Shown here piece after piece: positions 2,961 through 56,386 of a stretch of 64,000 nt of DNA (the stretch's first letter is position 1; every line of letters starts with the position of its first letter). This DNA is from Parvibaculaceae bacterium (GTDB lineage Bacteria > Pseudomonadota > Alphaproteobacteria > RS24 > CBDDDD01), in NCBI GenBank assembly GCA_965226465.1, contig OZ245362.1, positions 961,931 through 1,025,930 on the forward strand, in the 5' to 3' direction. A program made the translations under genes and the position numbers. The notes beneath the pieces were generated by a model, which was not told the DNA's origin, did not search any database, and saw only the letters and a list, made by a program, of their open reading frames with translations.

Positions 2961-3045
2961 TTCAACCCTTTCCTTCTCCCCCCCCTGTTTATATCCCTAA
3001 CTCCCCCCCACCGCCATATATTTTTACCCCTTTCCCCAAAAAATC

Positions 3046-3338
3046 CCCCCATAAATAAAAATGCGCCCCCAAAGGGACACTCCTACCCCCCCCCTATTTT
3101 TGATTGCATAAGCAATCAAAAAGGGTGGCGGTAGAGGGTAGTGTTTTCCTCAAACCTCCCCCCAACCTCAGAACAAGTTCCCCCCTATTTTTTAATAGGC
3201 ATTACATGCCTATTAAAAAAGGGTGAAAAAAGCTCCCCAGCTTTGCTGGGGTCTAGCTTTTTGCGCGCAGGAACACAAAGCATTCCGAGCGAAGGGGGGT
3301 TAGGGGGGTGTGGGCGGGGCATGCGCCTTCGGCGCATG
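3046..3338. repeat. Composite block of short hairpin repeats, collinear with a second block at 49439-49680
   Basis: The units, in order, are:
- cccataaataaaaatgcgcccccaaagggacactcctacccc (3048-3090)
- cccccctattttt-gattgcataagcaatc-aaaaaggg (3089-3125)
- cccccctattttttaataggcattacatgcctattaaaaaaggg (3180-3223)
- ggggggttaggggggtgtgggcgggg (3294-3319)
- GC hairpin gcatgcgccttcggcgcatg (3319-3338)
Near-identical strings recur in the same order at 49439-49680. Confidence 0.85.
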
Positions 3339-3399
3339 TTATATGAACTGCAAATTGCTGGGGTTTTGTTTTTCAATAGAATCTTATATACCTCTTAAG

Positions 3400-5202
3400 A
3401 TGGGAAAATCTAAAAAAATCAAACCATGGTCAATTTCTACTACAATGAGAAATCCTGCACGCGCTAGGAGTTTTCTACGTGTTTTAGCACAAATGGAAGG
3501 AAGAGAATGGGATAACGAAGCAAAAATGGAATTCCAAACACGCCTTATCCAGAATCGCTTATTTGGATATGGGAGTGCGCAATTTTATGACTCACTATCA
3601 GAGTCTGATAAAGCATTATTAGAGAATACTAAAAAAAAGATACCGCTTGCTGAGGCAAAGAGAATTTTTGTGGAAAAAGGATATAAAGACCCCCCAATGA
3701 GGGGAAGAACTTCTTATAAACCACTTGAAAAATTTGGTTTTGCCAATCATGCCATTGGTAAGAAAATTGCTATTACCTCATCAGGAATAGCTTTGCTGGA
3801 AGAAATCACAGAAATGAGTGAGCTTTTTACAAAGTCATTTATAAAATGGCAATTGCCCAATCCACAAGACAAAAGAGGCTTCCCTGCCAAGCATGGCTAT
3901 AACATTAAACCTTTCATAGGAGTTTTGCATTTGATTAGAGAGGTAAACCGCCTTTGTAAAATAAATAAAACAAAAGCAAAAGGAATCTCGCTATGGGAGT
4001 TTAAAGTATTTGGCGTGACTTTAATTAACTACCAAAAAATAAAAGATACCGCTAAAGAAATTATAAAATTTCGGGAAATGGTGAAGAAAAATTCTTCAAG
4101 AGATGACCAAATATATAATAATGATACTATTGAGAAATTACGCCCTGATTTTGATATAGACAATTTGCATGACTATGCTGACAATGCCTTAAGATATTTT
4201 AGAACAACCAAGCTTATTCACTTGAGGGGAGGCAATCGGTATATTGACCTTGAGCCTTTGAGGCGCATTGAAATAGATACTCTGCTTGATAGTCAAACAG
4301 GAGAGGCGAATATTCCAGCATCAGATTATGTTCAAGAAATAGGGGATGTAACAAAACCCATTCTACCTTGGGAAACAACAAAATATATTCAAAAAGCTGC
4401 AGAAATAGTTAAGAAATCAATAAATGAGCAGGGAGGCACAGTTCAACATGCTCCAGATTTTGATAACATATCTTTACAAGAACAAAAAGAATATCTTAAG
4501 CGGTTAAGAAAAGAAGCTATTATAGAGAAAAGAAAACAAGAAAAAACGGAGATGCAATCCCCTGAAAAAATTCAAGAAATTATCAAACAATTAGAAATCT
4601 TAGCAGATCGAAAAAAGGCGAAAGAAATTCCCAATAAGCCTGTCTTGTTAGAATATCTAATTAATTTGGGAATGGTCGCTTTAAATGATGCGAAAAAAAT
4701 AGAGCCTAACTATCCCGTCGGAGATGATAATACTCCCTCCTTCACTGCTCCAGCGGGAAAGCCAGACATTGAGTGTTATTATGAAAACTTTTCTCTCATT
4801 TGTGAAGTGACTATGCTAAGAACAAGAGACCAATGGTATAATGAAGGACAGCCTGTTCTACGACATTTGGATGATTTTGAAAAAGACAGAAAAGAGGATT
4901 GCTTTTGTCTATTTATTGCCCCTTACATTCATCAGGATACCGCCAATACCTTTTTATTCTCTGTAAAGCATTCTTATGAGAATAAAAAAAGATTGATAGT
5001 TCCCCTAACAATAAAAGAGTTTTCTGAGATTTTATCTTTTTGTGCAAATAGGCTTGAAGAAGGAAACCCTTTAAGCAGAAATGAATTGAAAGACATATTC
5101 TTGTCTATCTCTGCTGAAGCAGAAGCTTTAGAAAGCGGCAAGGATTGGTGCAATGCTGTGCCTAAATTACTCTCTCAATGGTTTCAGGAAGCATCAAGAT
5201 GA
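3400..5202 (+). CDS. Type IIS-like restriction endonuclease, AlwI/PleI/MlyI/Nt.BstNBI family (assigned from memory)
   Basis: The ORF spans 3310-5202. I prefer the ATG at 3400 (MGKSKKIKPW...) because the first 90 nt overlap the repeated intergenic element. Blocks FIKWQLPNP, NALRYFRTTKLIHLRG and the C-terminal PDIECYYENFSLICEVTM...CLFIAPYI...IVPLTIKEF resemble my recollection of Nt.BstNBI. The stop overlaps the next start (ATGA). The gene is visibly AT-rich. Confidence 0.65.
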   Translation: MGKSKKIKPWSISTTMRNPARARSFLRVLAQMEGREWDNEAKMEFQTRLIQNRLFGYGSAQFYDSLSESDKALLENTKKKIPLAEAKRIFVEKGYKDPPMRGRTSYKPLEKFGFANHAIGKKIAITSSGIALLEEITEMSELFTKSFIKWQLPNPQDKRGFPAKHGYNIKPFIGVLHLIREVNRLCKINKTKAKGISLWEFKVFGVTLINYQKIKDTAKEIIKFREMVKKNSSRDDQIYNNDTIEKLRPDFDIDNLHDYADNALRYFRTTKLIHLRGGNRYIDLEPLRRIEIDTLLDSQTGEANIPASDYVQEIGDVTKPILPWETTKYIQKAAEIVKKSINEQGGTVQHAPDFDNISLQEQKEYLKRLRKEAIIEKRKQEKTEMQSPEKIQEIIKQLEILADRKKAKEIPNKPVLLEYLINLGMVALNDAKKIEPNYPVGDDNTPSFTAPAGKPDIECYYENFSLICEVTMLRTRDQWYNEGQPVLRHLDDFEKDRKEDCFCLFIAPYIHQDTANTFLFSVKHSYENKKRLIVPLTIKEFSEILSFCANRLEEGNPLSRNELKDIFLSISAEAEALESGKDWCNAVPKLLSQWFQEASR

Positions 5203-5975
5203 AGCTGAATCATATATATACGGGCGACTGCACAAAAATACTCAAGCAACATATAAACTCAAAATCTGTTGATATGATTTATGCCGACCCTCCATATAAT
5301 GCATCTCATAAGAAGGTAACCCTCCCCAATAATAAAACAGGAGGAGCTTTTTATAAGGTGAATGAAGGTTGGGATAAGTTCACAGATGAGGAATATTGGA
5401 AATTTTCTGACGCTTGGATAGATGAGGCATATAGAGTTCTTAAAAAAAACGGAAGCCTATATGTTTCATGTAGCATGCATAATATTGGTGAAGTTCTCGT
5501 CATTGCCAAACAAAAGGGATTCCTTTTAAAAAACATTATTACTTGGCATAAAGCAAATGCGATGCCCAACATATCAAAAAGAACCTTTCAGCACTCAACA
5601 GAATATGTTTGCTGGTTTGTTGCGGGCGGAAAATGGATTTTTAATTATATGAACCTTAAAAAAATAAATGATGAAAAAACAAAAGATGGAAAAAGCAGGC
5701 AAATGCAAGATTTGATAAAAATGCCTGTTTTGCAAGGAAAAGAAAGATTAAAGGGGAAAGATGGAAGGGCATATCATCCGACACAAAAGCCTGAAAAATT
5801 GCTTGAAATCCTTATTACAGCATCAACAAATAAAGGGGATATTGTCCTAGACCCTTTTTTGGGAGTGGGAACAACTGCCGCAGTTGCTCATAAAATGAAA
5901 AGAAGGTGGATTGGAATTGAAAAAGAGGCTAGCTATGTAAGGGCTACAAAACAACGATTAAGGAGAATCACGTGA
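5199..5975 (+). CDS. DNA methyltransferase M1 (beta-class N6-adenine/N4-cytosine, DPPY type)
   Basis: Motif IV MIYADPPYN lies at the N-terminus. HPTQKPEKLLEILI and motif I DPFLGVGTT lie at the C-terminus. The start at 5199 forms an ATGA overlap with the endonuclease stop. Confidence 0.9.
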   Translation: MKLNHIYTGDCTKILKQHINSKSVDMIYADPPYNASHKKVTLPNNKTGGAFYKVNEGWDKFTDEEYWKFSDAWIDEAYRVLKKNGSLYVSCSMHNIGEVLVIAKQKGFLLKNIITWHKANAMPNISKRTFQHSTEYVCWFVAGGKWIFNYMNLKKINDEKTKDGKSRQMQDLIKMPVLQGKERLKGKDGRAYHPTQKPEKLLEILITASTNKGDIVLDPFLGVGTTAAVAHKMKRRWIGIEKEASYVRATKQRLRRIT

Positions 5976-6706
5976 ATAATATTTTGCAATGTATTGATTG
6001 TTTGGAAGGAATGAAAAATCTGCCAGAAAATTCCGTAGACCTTATCTTTGCCGACCCTCCATATAATTTGTCGGGAAAAAGCCATATGACCGTTAAAAGC
6101 GGGAAGAGAGCAACATGCGATAAGGGCAAGTGGGATATTATAGGTGATATTGATAAATTTAACGAACAATGGATAAAAGCATGTGTTCGGGTTTTAAAAG
6201 AAGAAGGAACAATTTGGATTTCTGGAACGCTACATAACCACCCATCTGTTGGTAAAATACTGAAAAAACTAGACCTTTGGATTATCAATGACATTATTTG
6301 GTATAAGCATAATGCGCCCCCTCTTGCTAGCTGCAATCGCTTTGTGCCATCCACAGAACTTATCTGGTTAGCAAGCAAAACCAAGAAATATTATTTTGAT
6401 TATGATGAAGCAAAAAGAATCAATCAGGGAAAGCAGATGCGTAATCTTTGGACTATCAATGCAATGCGCCATAAAACGGCACACCCGACTGAAAAACCAG
6501 AAACCCTACTTGACCGTATTATCACTATAGGCTCACAAAAAGGGGATACAATCCTAGACCCCTTTACAGGTTCCGGCACAACAGGTGTTGTGGCAAAAAG
6601 GCTTCAAAGAAACTTTATTGGTTTTGAGATTTCACCAGAATATTTCAATATTGCTAAAAATCGCATAGAGGCAGAAACCCTTCAGCCACAGCGTGATGCC
6701 GTCTAA
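5972..6706 (+). CDS. DNA methyltransferase M2 (beta-class, DPPY type)
   Basis: Motifs LIFADPPYNL, HPTEKPETLLDRII and DPFTGSGTT are present. The GTG start at 5972 overlaps the M1 stop (GTGA) and is preceded by AGGAGA. Confidence 0.9.
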   Translation: MNNILQCIDCLEGMKNLPENSVDLIFADPPYNLSGKSHMTVKSGKRATCDKGKWDIIGDIDKFNEQWIKACVRVLKEEGTIWISGTLHNHPSVGKILKKLDLWIINDIIWYKHNAPPLASCNRFVPSTELIWLASKTKKYYFDYDEAKRINQGKQMRNLWTINAMRHKTAHPTEKPETLLDRIITIGSQKGDTILDPFTGSGTTGVVAKRLQRNFIGFEISPEYFNIAKNRIEAETLQPQRDAV

Positions 6707-6729
6707 AACACACCCCCAATCCTTTACTA

Positions 6730-7821
6730 TTACTTCCCAACCATCTCCAACCGCAAAACCGCGCGCAAATCATCAATCGGAACCAGCCGCTCGCCGCTGG
6801 CAATGTGCCAGAACTTCCAGCCATTGCACGCCTCGCGCCCCTGCAGCAAGGCGCCCATTTTATGGATGGAGCCGGTCTTATCCTGCGCCTTTAGCGAGCC
6901 ATCGGCGCGCACCTTTGCGCCATATTTCCGCGCCGGTCCAAATAATTGCGTGCCGGGCTTAACAATGCCCCTCTCCACCAAAGCCCCAAAAGCGATGCGA
7001 GGCTCGGCTCTAGGCGAGAGCGTCACCGCCAACGCCTCCTCCGATAAGGGCTTAATTCCAGCAAGGCGCGCTTTGGCATGCTGCACATATTCCGTATACG
7101 CCTCAATTCCGATAAAATTGCGCCCCAGCTTTTTAGCAACCGCACATGATGTCGCCGTTCCCGCAAAAGGGTCAAGCACCACATCACCTGGCTTGCTGGA
7201 AGCGAGCAGCACCCGATATAAAAGCGCCTCAGGTTTTTGGGTCGGGTGCAGCTTTTCGCCCTTTTCATTTTTCAGCCGCTCTCCGCCGACACAAAGCGGA
7301 AGCACCCAGTCAGAGCGCATTTGCACGCCTTCATTCAGCGCCTTCATGGCATGATATTGGAAGCATGGGCGCGCATTTTTATCGCGCCCCGCCCAGATAA
7401 GCGTCTCATGGGCATTGGTAAATCTCGTGCCCCGAAAATTCGGCATGGGATTAGTTTTGAGCCAAATAACATCATTCAAAATCCAAAACCCAAGATTTTG
7501 CATAATATTCCCTACACGGAATATATTATGATAACTCCCCATTGTCCAAATTGCGCCATTTTTTTTCAATATGCGCCGTGCCTGCACCAGCCATTTTTCC
7601 GTAAACTCATCATAATGAGCAAAACTTTCAAAGCTATCCCATTTTTCATGCACGCCCTCCACCCTGCTCTCATCGGGGCGTTTCAGCTTTCGGTCAATTT
7701 GCAGATTATAAGGCGGGTCGGCAAAAATAAGGTCAATGCTCTCATCGGGCATTTTTTCCATAGCGGCGATGCACTCGCTATGGATAATTTCATTTACTGG
7801 CAATGATTTTTTCATCGGCAC
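6730..7821 (-). CDS. ccrM: Cell-cycle-regulated GANTC adenine methyltransferase CcrM homologue
   Basis: 363 aa. It is near-collinear with my memory of Caulobacter CcrM: LIFADPPYNLQ, GAIWTMGSYHNIFRVG, FWILNDVIWLKTNPMPNFRGTRFTNAHETLIWA, HPTQKPEALLYRVLLASSKPGDVVLDPFAGTATS, plus the roughly 90-aa C-terminal extension ending ACNGWKFWH. Confidence 0.9.
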   Translation of the reverse strand: MPMKKSLPVNEIIHSECIAAMEKMPDESIDLIFADPPYNLQIDRKLKRPDESRVEGVHEKWDSFESFAHYDEFTEKWLVQARRILKKNGAIWTMGSYHNIFRVGNIMQNLGFWILNDVIWLKTNPMPNFRGTRFTNAHETLIWAGRDKNARPCFQYHAMKALNEGVQMRSDWVLPLCVGGERLKNEKGEKLHPTQKPEALLYRVLLASSKPGDVVLDPFAGTATSCAVAKKLGRNFIGIEAYTEYVQHAKARLAGIKPLSEEALAVTLSPRAEPRIAFGALVERGIVKPGTQLFGPARKYGAKVRADGSLKAQDKTGSIHKMGALLQGREACNGWKFWHIASGERLVPIDDLRAVLRLEMVGK

Positions 7822-12871: not shown

Positions 12872-13055
12872 CCTCCCTCTGTCGGTGGACCTGAGAGCAT
12901 TCGCTCTGCGAGCATTCACCCCGCAAGGCTTACTCCTTCGGTGGAAGAGCAACTACCCTTCGCTTTCCAGAGTGACATTAACACGCGGTCCGTTTGCCTG
13001 AGAGATTATGGAGGATTTTGCTCCTTCGGCGTCGTATGACTACTCCTCTTCCGCG
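12872..13055 (-). promoter_or_regulatory. Tandem glycine riboswitch (two aptamers) in the gcvT leader
   Basis: The minus strand reads GCGGAAGAGGAG...CGCCGAAGGAGCAA...CTCTCAGGCAAACGGACCGC. It continues CTCTGGAAAGCGAAGGG...CCACCGAAGGAGTAA...CTCTCAGGTCCACCGACAGAGGG. These are the conserved glycine-aptamer cores, present twice immediately upstream of gcvT. Confidence 0.8.
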
Positions 13056-13146
13056 CGCATCTTTTGTCGGTTTCAGCTTATGGTTGCGGAGCGATAAGTC
13101 AAACGCAAAAGCGGACTTACCCACAGCCAAACTCTTGCCTTGACTT

Positions 13147-48696: not shown

Positions 48697-49422
48697 ATGT
48701 TTACGCCAGAAGTTGCAAACAGGCTTGGCTCTTATGTCTATAGGCTGATTGATCCAAGAAATGGTCAAACATTTTATGTTGGTAAAGGCAAAGGAAATCG
48801 TGTTTTTTCTCACGCTAAGGGCGATATCGGAAAAGAGTCCGATGAGGTGAGCGACAAAATGAAACGAATCCAAGAGATTAAAAATGATGGTTTTGAAGTT
48901 TCGCATATTATTCATCGGCACGGCTTAGATGAAAAAACTGCTATTGAGGTAGAGGCGGCATTAATAGATGCCTATCCAGAAGTTACAAATAAAACCACAG
49001 GACATTATTCCAATGAGCGCGGCATTATGCACGCACAGCAAGTGGTTACTCAATACCAAGCAGAAGAGATACCCTTGTCCAAGCACAAAGTCCTCATGCT
49101 AAGCATTAATGAATCCGCTTCCGAAGCAAATGGTATATATGAAGCCACAAGATATGCTTGGAAGTTAGATGATAAAAGGGCTAAGGAAGCAGAGTTTATA
49201 TTGGCGTTGCAACAAGGTCTTGTCATAGGCGTGTTTATTGCAGAAGACTGGATGGAAGCTACACAGGAGAACTTTCCAGGAAGAGAAAGCATGCCAAAAA
49301 GATGGGGTTTCATCGGCAAAGAAGCAGATAAAGAGATACAAAATATCTACCTCAGAAAGAGATTGCCAGACGATATGAGAAAAAAAGGCGCCGCAAACCC
49401 CATTCGTTATTCATATAAATAA
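48697..49422 (+). CDS. GIY-YIG nuclease-domain protein with an uncharacterised C-terminal domain
   Basis: N-terminus SYVYRLIDPRNGQTFYVGKGKGNRVFSH fits a GIY-YIG variant. I do not recognise the C-terminal ~140 aa (ATRYAWKL...GLVIGVFIAEDW...NPIRYSY). Preceded by aggag. AT-rich. Confidence 0.6.
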   Translation: MFTPEVANRLGSYVYRLIDPRNGQTFYVGKGKGNRVFSHAKGDIGKESDEVSDKMKRIQEIKNDGFEVSHIIHRHGLDEKTAIEVEAALIDAYPEVTNKTTGHYSNERGIMHAQQVVTQYQAEEIPLSKHKVLMLSINESASEANGIYEATRYAWKLDDKRAKEAEFILALQQGLVIGVFIAEDWMEATQENFPGRESMPKRWGFIGKEADKEIQNIYLRKRLPDDMRKKGAANPIRYSYK

Positions 49423-49438
49423 AACCCCTACCCCCCTT

Positions 49439-49680
49439 CCATAAATAAAAATGCGCGCCCCTCAGGGCGCACTCCTAATCCCTCCCAACAAATCAAATAA
49501 TCTAGCCCTATAGAATTAGAGGCAGGCAGGGAGATGTTCCCTATCCCATAAATAAAATGCGCCCCCAAAGGGGGCACTTCAAATCCCCCCCTATTTTTTA
49601 ATAGGCATCACATGCCTATTAAAAAAGGGCGGAGGGGGGCTAGGGGGGTGTGGGCGGGGAAGCCCGCCAAAGGCGGGCTT
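49439..49680. repeat. Composite hairpin-repeat block, collinear with 3046-3338
   Basis: The units, in order, are:
- ccataaataaaaatgcgcgcccctcagggcgcactcctaatcc (49439-49481)
- cccataaataaaatgcgcccccaaagggggcacttc (49545-49580)
- cccccctattttttaataggcatcacatgcctattaaaaaaggg (49585-49629)
- ggggggctaggggggtgtgggcgggg (49634-49659)
- hairpin aagcccgccaaaggcgggctt (49660-49680)
On the minus strand, the hairpins followed by T-rich runs look like stacked terminators after the XRE gene. Confidence 0.85.
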
Positions 49681-49704
49681 ATAAAAAAGCAATGCATACC
49701 TAAT

Positions 49705-50665: not shown

Positions 50666-51259
50666 TTACCCTGCTGACATAATTCTCTTTTCTTCATCCG
50701 CAATTTTTGTTGTGGCTTTATTATAAAAATTAGATATGCGCTCCTTTAACATTTGCACTTTATGACGCAAGTCAATTTCTGCAGTAGCAGGCAGATCTCC
50801 GATTATATCTAGGACTGTGTCTTCAAACCGATCCAACTCATCTACTGAAAGAATAGTAACTGATTTATAGAAAGAAACTTTTTGCTTCAAATCTTCAAAA
50901 TAATCAGAAAAATCTATCTGGATATCCTCAATAAACTCAGGGAAAGATTCAGATTGAGCCTGACCTGATTTACTAATTTTCCGATTTATCCTTCTGTGTA
51001 TTTCATTAATTTTTTTAAGGTTATCCCGCATTGAATTCGCATAATCATCCTTAAATTGATTTAACTCCAAATTTTTTTTATGAAACCTTCTTCCTGCATA
51101 TAAATTATACACACTAAAGAAAAAATTTAATAAACCAAAAAACACTGCCACTGTGACGATCCAGGGTAAATCACCCTGAATGGTTTTATTCAACGAAATG
51201 TAGAAAACAATTGCAAGTGTGACAATCGGTACAATGAAAATAATGTTAAGAAATTTCAC
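50666..51259 (-). CDS. Hypothetical 2-TM membrane protein with a helical cytoplasmic tail (third gene of the operon)
   Basis: 197 aa. TM helices are FLNIIFIVPIVTLAIVFYISL and LPWIVTVAVFFGLLNFFFSVYNLY, followed by about 140 aa of charged, helical-looking sequence. It starts 3 nt after the upstream gene ends. Confidence 0.6.
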   Translation of the reverse strand: MKFLNIIFIVPIVTLAIVFYISLNKTIQGDLPWIVTVAVFFGLLNFFFSVYNLYAGRRFHKKNLELNQFKDDYANSMRDNLKKINEIHRRINRKISKSGQAQSESFPEFIEDIQIDFSDYFEDLKQKVSFYKSVTILSVDELDRFEDTVLDIIGDLPATAEIDLRHKVQMLKERISNFYNKATTKIADEEKRIMSAG

Positions 51260-51262
51260 TTT

Positions 51263-51571
51263 TCAATCCCACAAGCTAATAGCCAAATCAATATATCCAT
51301 CTATTCTGTCCATTATTGCCGGTGGAGCTTGAAAAATATATTTTTCTAGAAAAGCTCTTTTTCCACCACACTTTTTAATACTCTCAGAAAACAACCCTAA
51401 GAAAAATGAAGAGGAAAAAACAATAATATGATTTGGTATAATAACTTGCACTTCGTCTGGACTATTATCATATTTATCAATATTATAGTCTTTTCTGGTA
51501 GCCTCGCCCTTTGGCTTTCCAGACAACACACTAGCTTTACTTTTTATTACTATCTTAACACTATCCGCCAT
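51263..51571 (-). CDS. Small STAS-like (DUF4325-type) protein (second gene of the operon)
   Basis: 102 aa. The core EVQVIIPNHIIVFSSSFFLGLFSESIKK...YIFQAPPAIMDRI resembles the STAS-like partners found beside GHKL ATP-binding proteins. It overlaps the upstream gene by 11 nt. Assignment is from memory only. Confidence 0.5.
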   Translation of the reverse strand: MADSVKIVIKSKASVLSGKPKGEATRKDYNIDKYDNSPDEVQVIIPNHIIVFSSSFFLGLFSESIKKCGGKRAFLEKYIFQAPPAIMDRIDGYIDLAISLWD

Positions 51572-52979
51572 TTTTGCGCTCCATAGAATTATTGTTTAGT
51601 GCAAACCTTATTGATATAATGGTGCCAGGAAATCTAATATCTGTATCAAAAACATATTGCTTATCTGGAGCAATTTCAGGGTCATTTTCTGTATTAAAAT
51701 ATTGGCTCATTTTACCAGCCTTTTTGCCATCCACTTTTTTTCCGTTATGATACTTATCCTTAAGCATTATGCAAGAATTACCAGATATAATTGTAATTCT
51801 TGGTTTTGTTATAGAGTTTATATCTCCCAATTGGCTAGAAAAATTTGTCATTTGCATCATTCCAACTCCACCTTGAGATTCCCCCATGCGGCTTGTTATC
51901 CCATCCTGCAATGCAAATACTGTGGCTAACGTATCTTTAGAATGTGTTTTTGAGATATGTTTCTTACAGTATTTTTCTGTCATGTCTTTTATTTTTCCGC
52001 CTGCATCTAACAGGCTTTCAGCTATTGTACGCCCCAAACTGATAATAGACAAATGACAAAGATATTCATCTCCTCGCTTCGCCAAAAAGCCAGTAATATA
52101 CCAACCTCCATCATTTTCCTTAACAGTGCTGTGCCTTTGTGCGTTATCAAGAATCTCTGCTACTACACTGCCTAGCCAACTTTTTCCGCTACCAGTAAGT
52201 TTATAAGGGCTTGTAGTTTTCCCTAACCATTGATCAATAGCTTCTATAAGATTTTGAACAACTTTTTCCTGTTTTTGCCTTGCCTCAACTAACGAACCAT
52301 CTGTACGAGAGTGAGAATCTCTACTCTGCAACTTAAATGCCCAAACATCATCTCCCTTTAGCGTATCACTTTGCATACGCAAAAATTCCTTTAACTTTGT
52401 TGCTTCAATGACTTTCAACACAGGCCTCCTTATTTCCCCTCCTTGCATAAAATTCAACATTTTCTGCCTCATAACTCCCAAAACAAGATAAGGACCAACA
52501 TCGTATATATAATAATCCTCAAAGCTTACTCTTGCACTCAGCACCTCTAACTCAAGCTGTGCTAATCCCTTAAGCTGCTGAAGTGTCTCCCTCGGTTTAT
52601 CCAGAAAAGAAAACTCTTTAAGGCTTATTTCCTTTTTTTCTGTGCGTCCTTTACGCTTTCTCCATTGCTTTTTTCTGTCAGATATAAAAGCATCTAAAAT
52701 TTCTGATTCTTGAAATACAAGTTCCCTCTCTGGAGGAAAAAGAGGCTTATTATAGGGGTGAACAATTCTCTTAAGCCTTCTTCGCAAATTATTGGCATGA
52801 ACCTTGCTATGTCCATTTTCTATTGCCCTGTCATAAACATATTTCCGTAAATTACGAAATTCATGAGGACTCAGCTCTTGCAACATCTCTCTATCAGAAA
52901 GTTCAGATATACTAAGTGATTGCAGGTGTTCTGCTAATAAAGGTGATTGCTTCTTTTTATAATTAAATCTATCTGCCAT
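51561..52979 (-). CDS. GHKL (Bergerat-fold) ATPase/kinase-like protein with an unknown ~260-aa N-terminal domain (first gene of the operon)
   Basis: 472 aa. It carries N-box VVAEILDNAQRH (nt 52131-52166), G1-like SIISLGRTI, G2-like GESQGGVGMMQM and terminal strand FPGTIISIRF. I do not recognise the basic N-terminal half. Confidence 0.6.
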   Translation of the reverse strand: MADRFNYKKKQSPLLAEHLQSLSISELSDREMLQELSPHEFRNLRKYVYDRAIENGHSKVHANNLRRRLKRIVHPYNKPLFPPERELVFQESEILDAFISDRKKQWRKRKGRTEKKEISLKEFSFLDKPRETLQQLKGLAQLELEVLSARVSFEDYYIYDVGPYLVLGVMRQKMLNFMQGGEIRRPVLKVIEATKLKEFLRMQSDTLKGDDVWAFKLQSRDSHSRTDGSLVEARQKQEKVVQNLIEAIDQWLGKTTSPYKLTGSGKSWLGSVVAEILDNAQRHSTVKENDGGWYITGFLAKRGDEYLCHLSIISLGRTIAESLLDAGGKIKDMTEKYCKKHISKTHSKDTLATVFALQDGITSRMGESQGGVGMMQMTNFSSQLGDINSITKPRITIISGNSCIMLKDKYHNGKKVDGKKAGKMSQYFNTENDPEIAPDKQYVFDTDIRFPGTIISIRFALNNNSMERKNGG

Positions 52980-53004: not shown

Positions 53005-53040
53005 CAAAAAAGAGATATGCGCATAAGCGCACTACCCCCT
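53005..53040 (-). terminator. Minus-strand intrinsic-terminator-like hairpin upstream of the GHKL gene; a member of the repeated atgcgc...gcgcact family
   Basis: The plus strand reads aaaaaagagatATGCGCataaGCGCActaccccc. On the minus strand the hairpin is followed by a T-rich run. Confidence 0.45.
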
Positions 53041-53150
53041 TCTCCGTTACAAGTAAAGTGATTCGCATATATAAATCATATCTTAGACATATTTTCCTGT
53101 TGATAACTTTTCCCTATAGGGGGAGCCGTCTTCTCCCCCACCCCCAATCC

Positions 53151-53186
53151 AAAAAAAAGCCTCCCCCGCCGAAGCAGAGGAGGCTT
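53151..53186 (-). terminator. Minus-strand intrinsic terminator
   Basis: The plus strand reads aaaaaaaAGCCTCCcccgccgaagcagaGGAGGCTt. On the minus strand an 8-bp GC-rich stem is followed by T8. Confidence 0.6.
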
Positions 53187-53220
53187 AGGGTCTAAATGTC
53201 CCATAAGAAATCACAGTATA

Positions 53221-53860
53221 CAACAAACCACCCCCAAACACAAATCTCAAAAACCACCCCCCACCCCCTCCTCAATCCCCCCGCTCTCCCTTCCCCCTCT
53301 TAATCTCCCCCCCTCCCCCTCTCCCCTCTCACTCCCACCCCTCCTTTTTCCCCTACTCCCCAAAAAACCCCCCTCCTTCCTCCCAACTCCTCCCCCGCTC
53401 CCCCCTCTCAATCCCCCCGCTCTCTCCGCCACTCCCATCCCCCCTTTTTCGCCCACCCCCCTTATTTCTCCTCCCCCTCCTCACCCCTCAAAACCCCAAA
53501 TCTCCCCTTTTCCTCTCCCCCTCCTCCCAAAAAATCCCCCTCGCCCCTCTTAAATCTCCCCCACCCCCCCAATTCTCCCGGCTCCGCCTCCCCAATTCCC
53601 CCGTCCCCGCGCGCCCTTTTCGCCCCTTCCCCCTTCTTTCTCCAATTCCCCCGCACCCACTCACCCTTTTTGCCCCTCCCGCACCCCCTTTTCGCCCTCC
53701 CCCTTCTTTCTCCCCCAAAATCCCTACCCCCCCTTCCTCTCCCCCCCTCAAAAACCCCCCTTCCTCGCCCCTCTCAATACCGCCCGCTCCCCCACTCCAC
53801 TTCCCCCGCGCCCGCACCCTCTCTTTTTTCACCCCTCCACATTTTTTATTCCTCAAAAAA
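53221..53860. repeat. ~640-bp strand-pure polypyrimidine (C/T-rich) low-complexity tract with degenerate internal repeats
   Basis: By manual count there are only about 24 G in 53221-53880, mostly in CG context. Internal repeats:
- ctcaatccccccgctct at 53271 and 53407, with a variant at 53773
- cccttttcgcccc(t)tcccccttctttctcc at 53614 and 53685
- aattcccccg at 53594 and 53644
- ctcttaa(a)tctccccc near 53297 and 53547. Confidence 0.9.
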
Positions 53861-53862
53861 AC

Positions 53863-53990
53863 ACAAAATCTTCATATTTCATGAAATTTATCTCTTTTTT
53901 ATGAAGTTTTATTAAATTTTCACTCATTTCCATTTCATATTATTCATATTTTATGAATTATACTTCATATTTCATGAACTATATGAACAT
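53863..53990. promoter_or_regulatory. AT-rich block with a repeated TTCATGAA-type palindrome and direct repeats; candidate operator/promoter array
   Basis: The 16-bp direct repeat cttcatatttcatgaa occurs at 53870-53885 and 53963-53978. A perfect palindrome atttcatgaaat lies at about 53877-53888. Further (t)tatgaa(n)t cores lie near 53900, 53952 and 53983. Confidence 0.45.
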
Positions 53991-54060
53991 ATATCCACAT
54001 CCTTCACACAACAAAACCTCTCTTGACATGAACTCAAAAAAAAGCTATTTTCCATTTATT

Positions 54061-54303
54061 ATGTTACAAACCTCGTCAGAAGTGATAGATGCGCTGGGCG
54101 GCACCCAGAAAGTAGCGGAAATGCTAGGCGTTGGCTCGTCTGCGGTTTCCAATTACCGCAAGCTCGGCTTTCCCCGCCGTACTCATTACACATTGGCAAA
54201 GGCGTGCCAGATAGCCAGCTTGCGCGTATCGGAGCAGCTTTTCGGCGCAAAACCGCAGATTTCCGCCCGCGCGCGCGGCACCACCAGCCTCGCCATAGAG
54301 GAT
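54061..54303 (+). CDS. Cro/YdaS-like HTH segment, in frame with and not separated by a stop from the hisZ core
   Basis: MLQTSSEVIDALGGTQKVAEMLGVGSSAVSNYRKLGFPRRTHYTLAKACQIASLRVSEQLF matches the ..GG...vA..LGVs.sAVS.w...g.P pattern of small Cro-like regulators. The ORF 53953-55428 is continuous. Confidence 0.4.
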
Positions 54304-55428
54304 ATGACCGGTCAGCTCGCCCAAGACATGCGGATAGGCAGCATATTTGATGCGGCGGGTTATGAGCGCATAGAGACGCCGATATTGCAGCCCGCCGAGC
54401 CATTTCTAAACCGCCTCGGCGAGACGATGCGGCGGCGCATGTATCTCTTCACCGACCCCGCCGGCGAAGCGCTTTGCCTGCGCCCCGACTTGACCGTGCC
54501 GACCTGCCGCTATTACCTCGCCCAATCCGACGCGGGCGAGGCGCGCCACTACCGCTATCAGGGCACGGCGTTTCGCTATCGCGGCAGCGGCACGGGCGAG
54601 GGCGAGGAGTTCACGCAGGCTGGCATTGAAAACATTGGCGGCGCCAACCCTGAGATAGAGGACGCCGAAGTTTTGGCGCTCACCGTAAACGCCGTCCACG
54701 CTGTCGGCGTTCAGGATTACACCCTGTTGCTGGGCGATATCGGGCTTTTCACGGCGCTCATTGACAGCCTGCCTTTGGCGGAAAGCTGGCGTTTTCGGCT
54801 CAAGCAGCGCTTTTCGCAAGCCGCATTATTTTCCAAGCTTCTGCAAGAAGGCAGCCGCGAAAATGGCAATGATGAGAGCGAGAGCGGGGATATTGTATCC
54901 GCTCTTTCCGATATGGATGAGCAAAATGCCCAGGCTCTCATTGCGGGCATATTGCAAATGGCGGGACTTGTTCCCGGTAGCGGCAGAGATATTCAGCATA
55001 CTGCGCAACGGTTTCTGGCACGCGCCCGCGATAAGGCGGATATTGCCCTTTCCAAAGAAGCGCTTGCCACCATAGAGGCTTTTCTCGCCATTGAGGTGCC
55101 AGCAGAAAAAGCAATGGATGAGCTTCGCGCGCTGGGAATGCCTACTGACAGCGCTTTTGGAAGCGCACTCTCCTCTATGGCACAGCGATTTGACGCCCTG
55201 GAAGGGCGCAATGTCAGCCTAGAAAATGCACGCTTCTCAGCACAAAGCGGACAGAAATTTGCCTATTATACCGGTTTCCTCTTTGAACTGAATATAAATG
55301 GAAAAAAAATTGGCGGCGGCGGTCGCTATGATAAATTATTAAAAAGCTTAGGAAGCGATAAAGATATTCCCGCCATTGGCGGCGCATTGTCTTTAGAAAG
55401 ACTATATGAGGCAGTCGGCAATGCGTAA
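54304..55428 (+). CDS. hisZ: ATP phosphoribosyltransferase regulatory subunit (HisRS paralogue); conservative core from ATG 54304
   Basis: It has a class II aaRS-like core (GYERIETPILQPAEPFL, LRPDLTVP, YRYQGTAFRY, GGGGRYD) but no anticodon-binding domain. Its stop overlaps the hisG start. Confidence 0.8.
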   Translation: MTGQLAQDMRIGSIFDAAGYERIETPILQPAEPFLNRLGETMRRRMYLFTDPAGEALCLRPDLTVPTCRYYLAQSDAGEARHYRYQGTAFRYRGSGTGEGEEFTQAGIENIGGANPEIEDAEVLALTVNAVHAVGVQDYTLLLGDIGLFTALIDSLPLAESWRFRLKQRFSQAALFSKLLQEGSRENGNDESESGDIVSALSDMDEQNAQALIAGILQMAGLVPGSGRDIQHTAQRFLARARDKADIALSKEALATIEAFLAIEVPAEKAMDELRALGMPTDSAFGSALSSMAQRFDALEGRNVSLENARFSAQSGQKFAYYTGFLFELNINGKKIGGGGRYDKLLKSLGSDKDIPAIGGALSLERLYEAVGNA

Positions 55429-56386
55429 CCCCCTCATCATAGCACTACCCTCCAAAGGCAGGCTGGAAGAGCCGGCGAAAAAATATTTTGAGCGTGCGGG
55501 TCTGCCCATAGAAAGGGGCGTTAAGGGGCGGCAATATCGCGGCAGTCTTTCCAATATAGAGGGCGTGGAGATAAGCTATCTTTCCGCCAGCGAGATAGTC
55601 GGGGCGTTGCAGGCGGGCGATGTTCATTTTGGCATAACGGGCGAGGATTTATTGCGCGAGCAATTGCCGATAATGGAGGAGCGCATTGAGATATTGACTG
55701 GTCTTGGTTTTGGCAATGCCGATGTTGTGGTTGCGGTCCCGCAAAGCTGGATAGATGTCACCACCATGTCGGATCTCAGCGAAATTGCGCTGGAATATTT
55801 GCACATAAGAGGCAAGCGTTTGCGTTGCGCCACCAAATATAGCCATTTGGCAGGCGATTTTTTTGCGCGCCATCACATTGACGATTACCGCCTTGTGGAG
55901 AGCAGCGGGGCGACGGAGGGCGCACCAGCGGCGGGCAGTGCCGACTGCATTATTGACATCAGCTCCAGCGGGGCGACTTTGTCGGCGAACAGCCTGAAAA
56001 TACTGGATGACGGCATGATATTGCGCTCGGAGGCGAGCCTTTGTGCGGCGGTCAAAGCGAGCTGGAGCGGTCAGATGGAGCTTGTCCGCATGATATTATC
56101 GCGACTTGGCGCCCGTCAGCAAGGCTTGCGCCATATTGAGCTTCGCTTTGAAAGCAATGATAAGGATAGGCAATGGCTCCCCGCCCTGCTCAAAGAAAAA
56201 GCTGCCCGCTTCAGCTTTGGCGAGGCGCAAGGCGGCATCTGCTCGCTCCTTTGCCCGCAATCCGAGCTTGCCAATCTTTGTAAAGAGCTTCACCTCAAGG
56301 GCAAGAAAACCATTATCGCATCCAAAGCCGATTATATTTTTGAAGCCCAAAACCGCCTCTATGAAAAGCTCACCGCACGGCTTTAA
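55421..56386 (+). CDS. hisG: ATP phosphoribosyltransferase
   Basis: Begins MRNPLIIALPSKGRLEE and carries ITGEDLL and IIDISSSGATL. It has an extra ~100-aa C-terminal region. Its start overlaps hisZ. Confidence 0.9.
   Translation: MRNPLIIALPSKGRLEEPAKKYFERAGLPIERGVKGRQYRGSLSNIEGVEISYLSASEIVGALQAGDVHFGITGEDLLREQLPIMEERIEILTGLGFGNADVVVAVPQSWIDVTTMSDLSEIALEYLHIRGKRLRCATKYSHLAGDFFARHHIDDYRLVESSGATEGAPAAGSADCIIDISSSGATLSANSLKILDDGMILRSEASLCAAVKASWSGQMELVRMILSRLGARQQGLRHIELRFESNDKDRQWLPALLKEKAARFSFGEAQGGICSLLCPQSELANLCKELHLKGKKTIIASKADYIFEAQNRLYEKLTARL

Follow-up and report, generated by a model that had tools for sequence, protein, structure and literature searches.

The window considered here, i.e., the whole stretch of 64 kb of contig OZ245362.1 (Parvibaculaceae bacterium, GCA_965226465.1) that was analysed, contains at positions 53221-53860 a C-rich, G-depleted tract of 640 nt, which sits in a divergent gap of 1.08 kb between a three-gene cassette on the minus strand and a plus-strand gene encoding a helix-turn-helix (HTH) domain fused to HisZ. 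A first-pass annotation, made from the letters alone, had described the tract as separating an accessory island from hisZ, and the low-GC acquired cassette on its left was confirmed. The closest relative is the metagenome-assembled genome (MAG) Parvibaculales bacterium GCA_051010235.1, whose HisZ is 98% identical, while the next best HisZ in the search shows 44% identity. Its hisZ contig, in the following called L001, is 95.5% identical over 4.6 kb. The locus comprises the following features, given from left to right.

50666-52979, minus strand: three-gene cassette (472, 102 and 197 aa), function unassigned, GC 33-40%, acquired DNA left of the tract
53017-53032, minus strand: second, weaker hairpin plus T-run within the 472-aa gene's leader
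53149-53186, minus strand: intrinsic terminator with 13-bp stem, TTCG loop and T8, from consensus scan and fold, 35 nt downstream of the tract
53217-54074, unstranded: whole G-depleted domain, i.e., tract plus AT-rich promoter region, 34 G in 858 nt, best-scoring segment
53221-53860, unstranded: C-rich, G-depleted low-complexity tract, C-rich on the plus strand and G-rich on the minus strand, with 10 canonical G-quadruplex (G4) motifs on the minus strand
53861-54060, unstranded: AT-rich, G-poor region (4.5% G) from the tract to the start of HTH-hisZ, 95-97% conserved in L001
53871-53885, plus strand: operator-like motif TTCATATTTCATGAA, copy 1 (15 nt, containing the palindrome TTCATGAA), identical in L001
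53943-53957, plus strand: motif copy 2, TTCATATTTTATGAA, with 1 mismatch
53964-53978, plus strand: motif copy 3, exact, identical in L001
54023-54051, plus strand: sigma-70-like promoter TTGACA-17 nt-TATTTT (10/12), ending 9 nt before ATG 54061
54061-55428, plus strand: Cro-like HTH fused in frame to HisZ (Pfam; NCBIfam NF008953, residues 79-449)

Composition and internal repeats of the tract

By exact count, the plus strand of the tract consists of 371 C (58%), 150 T (23%), 95 A (15%) and 24 G (3.75%). This agrees with the earlier estimate by eye of about 24 G, nearly all of them in CG context, as C precedes 22 of the 24 G (P(≥22/24) = 3e-4 given 58% C); with contexts read by eye, C also follows 22 of the 24 G. 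The GC skew ranges from -0.80 to -0.94 across the 200-nt windows spanning 53200-53899. The probability of finding 24 or fewer G in 640 nt is 2.5e-34 using the G frequency of the 64 kb and 3e-12 using the G frequency at the four-fold sites of plus-strand genes. When segments were scored for G-depletion with +1/-8, the segment 53217-54074 was the top one of the window with a score of 552, the runner-up reaching 135. G-depleted and C-rich is thus an accurate description, whereas the designation as a strand-pure polypyrimidine tract was overstated, since pyrimidines account for 81% and purines for 19% of the plus strand and the longest pure pyrimidine run is 28 nt. Runs of five or more C (C5+) are indeed numerous, 29 being present compared to 17.4 +/- 2.7 in shuffles of the tract, but the longest is C7 and the C8 runs that had been described are absent inside the tract.

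The internal repeats that had been listed all exist. Two exact copies of CTCAATCCCCCCGCTCTC are found (53271 and 53407), the third copy, near 53775, being degenerate. A unit of ~30 nt occurs at 53614 and 53686, CCAATTCCCCCG at 53592 and 53642, and CTCTTAA(A)TCTCCCCC near 53298 and near 53548. Repeats exceed the expectation from dinucleotide-preserving shuffles modestly (z = 2-3), with 20 repeated 12-mers compared to 9.4 +/- 5.1 and four repeated 16-mers compared to 0.5 +/- 1.2. TRF reports arrays of 2-6 copies with 62-100% matches. No regular repeat period was found in the tract (best spectral peak 3.34, shuffle 95th percentile 3.24), and on the basis of this periodogram a tandem array, a minisatellite and helical phasing were rejected.

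The tract was supposed to be of a kind rare in bacterial chromosomes, and the hisZ loci of 80 other alphaproteobacteria (660 kb) contain nothing comparable, their highest-scoring G- or C-depleted segment reaching 38. The possibility of further copies found no support within the 64-kb window, where a blastn search of the tract against the remaining sequence returned nothing better than E 0.05, and a multi-copy element was rejected. A 17-mer of the tract matches 18 viral contigs, none of which carries a tract, and these were discarded as chance matches. Scans of genome contigs for relatives returned only hisZ loci with an identity of ≤42%, and metagenome scans for relatives found nothing.

Strand asymmetry of the window

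The orientation of the tract follows a bias that extends over the genome. On the plus strand of the window, C outnumbers G (19001 versus 12912) and A outnumbers T (18543 versus 13544), and 296 C5+ runs are found compared to 18 runs of five or more G (G5+), with 3-6 C5+ runs per kb inside genes. Read in plus-strand letters, the third codon positions of most genes on either strand show a GC skew (GC3) of about -0.5 to -0.65 and an AT skew (AT3) of about +0.5. The four-fold sites, read in the same way, hold 60% C, 20% A, 11% G and 8% T in plus-strand genes and 46% C, 28% A, 19% G and 6% T in minus-strand genes; the corresponding skews are -0.41 to -0.68 (GC4) and +0.44 to +0.63 (AT4). Substitutions from strain to strain are asymmetric as well (94 A<->C versus 21 G<->T), and L082, the contig of the related MAG that carries RsmD, has the same strand bias.

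The 58% C of the tract is not different from the four-fold sites of plus-strand genes (p 0.89), and its C-richness is therefore explained by weakly constrained sites on this strand being already that C-rich. The bias leaves the excess of T and the depth of the G depletion unexplained. The genome-wide strand bias is the more surprising finding than the tract itself and the source of much of the tract's strangeness. Animal mitochondrial genomes possess an asymmetry that is closer to that of the window than the bacterial norm.

Three genes of the window lack the genomic skew, namely hisZ and hisG (54277-56386) and the AlwI endonuclease gene (3310-5202). Their GC3 skews are -0.19, -0.04 and +0.09, respectively, compared to about -0.55 in their neighbours, and their AT3 skews are -0.10, -0.17 and +0.07 compared to about +0.5. 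The hisZ-hisG pair is also GC-richer (55-65%). These genes may be recent arrivals or may have been recently rearranged.

Comparison with the closest relative

L001 starts inside C-rich sequence of the same kind, joined to the same AT-rich flank, and carries at least 140 nt of tract-like sequence. Between the tract and L001, 15 mismatches and 11 gap events (70 bases) are found in ~0.2 kb, while the flank shows 198 mismatches and three gap events in 4.5 kb, so that the indel density of the tract is ~80 times and its substitution density ~2 times that of the flank. A 23-nt indel lies at the duplicated CCCCCCTTCCTC (53728 and 53755), and a module of ~45 nt (CCACTTCCCCCGCGCCCGCACCCTC...TTTTTTCACCCCT) is placed differently in the two strains. 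This pattern looks like the signature of slippage or unequal exchange and not like that of a constrained sequence. The RsmD contig of the MAG, L082, ends at ~48673 of the window, which is the left edge of the low-GC region. Beyond this MAG, the nearest relatives share only 44-46% identity in HisZ and RsmD, which points to a small-genome, poorly sampled alphaproteobacterial lineage.

Structure-forming potential

On its minus strand, the tract contains 10 non-overlapping canonical G4 motifs (at least four runs of three or more G, loops of 1-7 nt), while the other 63 kb hold seven on this strand. As shuffles of the tract already give 6.6 +/- 1.6 motifs, this richness only partly exceeds what the composition predicts. 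The mean G4Hunter score is 1.78, and 85% of the 25-nt windows lie above 1.5 compared to 2.3% elsewhere. At the level of the sequence, the potential for G4 and i-motif formation is high, and this part of the structural interpretation put forward in the first-pass annotation holds. The mirror-like, H-DNA-forming character that had been proposed alongside does not: there are two pure pyrimidine mirror repeats with 8-nt arms, shuffles yielding 1.38 on average with a longest arm averaging 7.7, and H-DNA is thus poorly supported, as the mirror symmetry is at chance level and 19% of the bases are purines.

The minus strand of the tract is 81% purine and contains 51 GGA and 14 GGAGG. As RNA, it is predicted to have essentially no Watson-Crick structure, the minimum free energy being -46 kcal/mol for 640 nt (z = +0.72) and the centroid fold being almost wholly unpaired. 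An RNA of the plus strand would likewise be unable to form many pairs, given so few G.

Flanking genes and acquired islands

To the right of the tract, the three TTCATATTTCATGAA copies fall within 108 nt, upstream of the HTH-hisZ promoter. Judged by their sequence they resemble operators, which the adjacent Cro-like HTH might recognise. The end of the tract and the -35 element of this promoter are 163 nt apart. A Shine-Dalgarno sequence is absent before ATG 54061 and the promoter ends 9 nt upstream of it, so the HTH-hisZ mRNA may be leaderless. The HTH of the fusion is Cro/YdaS-like and comprises ~66 aa, the HisZ profile begins at residue ~74-79 and HisG follows; the same fusion is present in P0001 of the related MAG (466 aa).

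To the left, the terminator hairpin (53186->53157, followed by T8) has a predicted free energy of -24.3 kcal/mol, unmatched by any other candidate in the 64 kb, and a fold z-score of -3.8. All sub-threshold Rfam matches fall on this hairpin, among them the family sar, which was rejected since it scores 23.6 bits compared to a gathering score of 43 and its first stem is unpaired. Homologues of the cassette constitute the same three-gene module elsewhere, with proteins of ~470-490, 102-114 and 197-248 aa, and the hosts include Rhizobium, Agrobacterium, Phaeobacter and Gluconobacter as well as many metagenomes. The cassette proteins have no matches in Pfam, NCBIfam or PADLOC; the large protein is labelled as sensor kinase or as ATP-binding protein in some sources. 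At three homologous cassette loci the upstream DNA is ordinary and no tract is present, and the idea that the tract is part of the cassette was rejected on these grounds. Further left lie a gene for an OmpA-like beta-barrel protein, an XRE-like open reading frame (ORF) and a GIY-YIG gene (48697-49422, plus strand), which matches the PADLOC defence model PD-T4-3 (E = 9e-104).

A smaller tract had also been reported beside the restriction-modification (R-M) island at the other end of the window, and it proved to be real.

2961-3050, unstranded: smaller tract of similar character (C 49%, T 30%, A 19%, G 2%), bordering the AlwI R-M island, with the ilvD start on one side and a minus-strand terminator on the other

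A G-free stretch of 51 nt (6702-6752) lies at the other edge of this island, whose defence genes (3310-6706, plus strand) comprise one for an AlwI-family restriction endonuclease followed by two putative methyltransferase ORFs. The 100 nt upstream of ilvD (2961-3100) contain 44% G and 2% C in sense direction, and this stretch is bounded by the ilvD start on one side and by a minus-strand terminator-like hairpin (~3061-3095) on the other. Purine-rich leaders as a general feature of genes were rejected, as ilvD alone has one among the leaders of the window.

Both low-GC islands have an element of ~260 nt in common (3040-3340 and 49430-49690). It consists of a terminator-like hairpin (ATAAATAAAAATGCGC...CACTCCTA) with a C-run behind it, of the perfect palindrome CCCCCCTATTTTTTAATAGGCATyACATGCCTATTAAAAAAGGG, and of the plus-strand G-rich sequence GGGGGGyTAGGGGGGTGTGGGCGGGG followed by a GC hairpin. 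The element has no match in JGI metagenomes or IMG/VR and could represent a cassette junction or else an insertion-site element. Low-complexity terminal inverted repeats of the islands (CCCACACCCCCCTA) were rejected because the motif is not specific. A tandem glycine riboswitch upstream of glycine-cleavage genes (12872-13063, minus strand; two aptamers with 54 and 44 bits) is ordinary.

Origin of the tract and alternative explanations

Our leading, albeit tentative, interpretation is that the tract is an unconstrained, lineage-specific, non-coding low-complexity spacer that is driven by slippage and located at the junction of acquired and resident DNA. Strand-specific mutation pressure, the bias itself being observed, would drive the spacer to a C-rich, G-poor state. 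Slipped-strand mispairing or unequal exchange among short direct repeats and C-runs, as the one available comparison suggests, would also act on it, and modules of the tract would be gained, lost and duplicated. If the tract follows the rule that G and T are enriched on the leading strand, its G-rich strand would be the lagging-strand template, and the ~10 G4 motifs would make the site fragile and prone to indels. Leftward transcription of the tract would yield a G-rich, structure-less RNA, which the terminator at 53186-53149 would halt, thereby insulating the neighbouring gene. A sequence-specific function is not required by the data, and none of the computed features demonstrates the barrier, boundary or recombinogenic roles raised in the first-pass annotation. 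Origin and function are compatible, and a tract made by slippage could have been co-opted.

Several observations weigh against an origin by mutation and slippage alone. G is 3-5-fold rarer in the tract than at four-fold sites (p 3e-12), T is ~3-fold more frequent (p 1e-33), and T exceeds A, whereas A exceeds T on this strand of the genome. The C5+ runs are clustered beyond what would follow from the composition, and C-richness is not seen in the remaining intergenic DNA of the window (pooled A.29, C.28, G.21, T.23). The terminator at 53149-53186 has no annotated gene upstream on the minus strand, only the tract, and hints at a transcript, while the second, small tract at the edge of the other acquired island hints at a link to island borders. 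The genome is probably small (1.38-Mb contig), so that deletion bias should purge 640 useless bp, yet the tract is older than the divergence of the two strains. Finally, the indel argument rests on a single relative, at a contig end.

The foremost alternative, although an unlikely one, is that the minus strand is the gene for a G/A-rich, nearly C-free non-coding RNA (ncRNA) of ~0.7-0.8 kb, whose leftward transcription would start in the AT-rich region, in divergent orientation to the HTH-hisZ promoter, and would end at 53186-53149. The TTCATATTTCATGAA motifs might control this ncRNA, which might fold into numerous RNA G-quadruplexes or serve as a purine-rich (GGA/Shine-Dalgarno-like) sponge. 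The notion of a purine-rich ncRNA template, raised in the first-pass annotation, is plausible in that, on the minus strand, the tract is directly followed by the strongest intrinsic terminator found in the window, and a G-rich transcript is therefore conceivable. G-rich RNA is a poor substrate of Rho, so an ncRNA of this kind would need an intrinsic terminator. The abundance of purines and of GGA and GGAGG on the minus strand and the conservation of the operator-like motifs in L001 fit this explanation, as does a weak promoter-like site (53975->53948, minus strand). This promoter, however, scores only 9/12 in AT-rich DNA, the scan giving four sites compared to 2.2 +/- 1.6 in shuffles. Moreover, the tract is hypervariable between strains that are 95.5% identical, structure is absent from the fold prediction (z-score of the minimum free energy +0.72), no Rfam family lies above threshold at the tract, and no tRNA or tmRNA was found.

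Next, and rather improbable, is a role at the level of the DNA, in which the tract, prone to G4, i-motif or R-loop formation, would be a fragile zone marking, and perhaps generating, a hot spot for the insertion or exchange of foreign cassettes and separating the acquired AT-rich DNA from the hisZG promoter. The ten canonical G4 motifs and the high G4Hunter scores would suit such a zone, G-depleted C-rich segments accompany both low-GC islands (2961-3050, 6702-6752 and 53221-53860), the tract is an indel hot spot, and the MAG contigs break at ~48673 and inside the tract, i.e., at the two edges of the second island. Yet just two islands are seen, with loosely defined edges, and low complexity or uneven coverage would be expected to break contigs as well. 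Neither a recombinase nor an att-like repeat is linked with the tract, a candidate motif that was tested being not specific, and mirror repeats are at chance level. We give still less credence to an extension of this idea that would make the tract a bacterial counterpart of a switch region, i.e., a transcription-activated G4/R-loop zone acting as landing pad or exchange point for the gain and swap of defence cassettes by this small genome. In this reading, a leftward G-rich RNA would start in the operator-bearing AT-rich region and be ended by the strong terminator, and smaller versions would lie at other island borders, such as 2961-3050 beside the R-M island.

It is very improbable that the RNA of the plus strand is an oversized Rho-loading (rut-like) region, which would halt rightward read-through before HTH-hisZ. 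With 58% C and 3.75% G the tract has the hallmark of rut sites and, together with the intrinsic terminator on the minus strand, it would provide insulation in both directions. A plus-strand promoter-like site left of the tract was not found, however, the genes adjacent on that side all lie on the minus strand, Rho requires only about one eighth of the 640 nt, and the Rho gene lies outside the 64-kb window.

That the tract is a decayed or phase-variable gene, frameshifting in C-runs and encoding a Gly/Arg/Glu-rich protein on the minus or a Pro/Ser/Leu-rich protein on the plus strand, is largely refuted, in agreement with the earlier statement that no coding sequence explains it. The sole long ORF, of 122 aa (53488-53856, minus strand), has a flat composition over its codon positions (chi-square p 0.99), and translation by hand of its frame in L001 meets a stop after 27 codons; the indels between the tract and L001, of 1-23 nt, are not multiples of three. 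The plus-strand frames are nearly stop-free, but this is because a G-free sequence cannot hold TAG or TGA, nor can it hold the starts ATG, GTG or TTG, and the long plus-strand frames lack a start codon. A 35-aa ORF from ATG 53196 is preceded by GAGGAGG and could be taken in favour of coding. Codon periodicity is absent, the period-3 spectral power of the tract being 0.28 compared to 3.7-7.5 in three real genes, and no Pfam family matches the tract. An artefact of assembly or sequencing can be practically dismissed, since, although low-complexity, homopolymer-rich DNA is error-prone and the length of single C-runs may be wrong, the independently assembled contig of the related strain starts within the tract and has at least 140 nt of such sequence on the same flank.

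If the tract is only mutational, as in the interpretation of an unconstrained, slippage-driven spacer that we prefer, it shows the fate of unconstrained DNA under very strong strand asymmetry, and it is a warning to annotators and assemblers, because such DNA breaks short-read contigs. If, on the other hand, it were true that the G-rich strand is transcribed or that the site is preferred by defence cassettes, non-B DNA would be linked to island acquisition in a bacterium.

Comparison with known systems

Contingency loci, such as the poly-C/poly-G loci of Neisseria, Haemophilus and Campylobacter and the Bordetella fim promoters, consist of single runs or short perfect repeats within an ORF or a promoter spacer, and their length switches a gene. 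The tract resembles them in its C/G runs, in the slipped-strand mispairing supposed to act on it and in the differences between close strains (11 gap events in ~0.2 kb). It differs from them as it comprises 640 aperiodic bases with 29 runs of C5-C7, lies more than 160 bp from the nearest -35 element and is in no ORF. The pilE-associated G4 of Neisseria gonorrhoeae is one motif of 16 nt with a small RNA (sRNA) promoter and pilS donor copies. In analogy, the tract has G4 motifs on one strand of an intergenic region, where in the pilE system local transcription was proposed to be needed and recombination to be stimulated. In contrast to pilE, it has ~10 motifs, donor cassettes are absent and there is no evidence for programmed recombination. 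Sites for Rho loading (rut) are of ~70-80 nt and lie in a known transcript; the plus strand of the tract would likewise give C-rich, G-poor, unstructured RNA of at least ~70 nt, but it extends over 640 nt and no plus-strand promoter was found.

Mirror repeats forming H-DNA have been reviewed (PMC11667243). For most prokaryotic genomes, oligopurine/oligopyrimidine runs and G4 patterns have been reported to occur in general about as often as expected (PMC4060949). A short intrastrand triplex motif was associated with rearranged loci in enterobacteria and linked to genome instability (PMC4666352). Nothing like a G-depleted tract of 640 nt is described in either of the latter two studies (PMC4060949; PMC4666352). 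The published triplex motif is short, conserved and present in multiple copies, whereas the tract is long, unique and unconserved (PMC4666352). The tract shares with H-DNA and triplex motifs the asymmetry of purines and pyrimidines between the strands and the association with an unstable locus. It deviates from them by a mirror symmetry that is not above chance, by 19% purines and by a longest pure run of 28 nt.

Immunoglobulin class-switch regions belong to eukaryotes, require AID and have defined promoters that drive their transcription. With these and other R-loop-forming G-rich repeats, the tract has in common, by analogy only, degenerate repeats over sub-kb to kb lengths, a G-rich strand, proneness to G4 and R-loop formation and a position at a recombination boundary. 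Sponge sRNAs of the CsrB/RsmZ type present GGA in hairpin loops. An RNA of the minus strand would be similar to these in being purine-rich, in containing many GGA and in ending at an intrinsic terminator, but it would be almost free of C and has no predicted hairpins. As the tract lacks at least one defining feature of each family that could be tested, it is filed here as hypervariable, low-complexity, G4-rich simple sequence and is assigned to none of the functional families.

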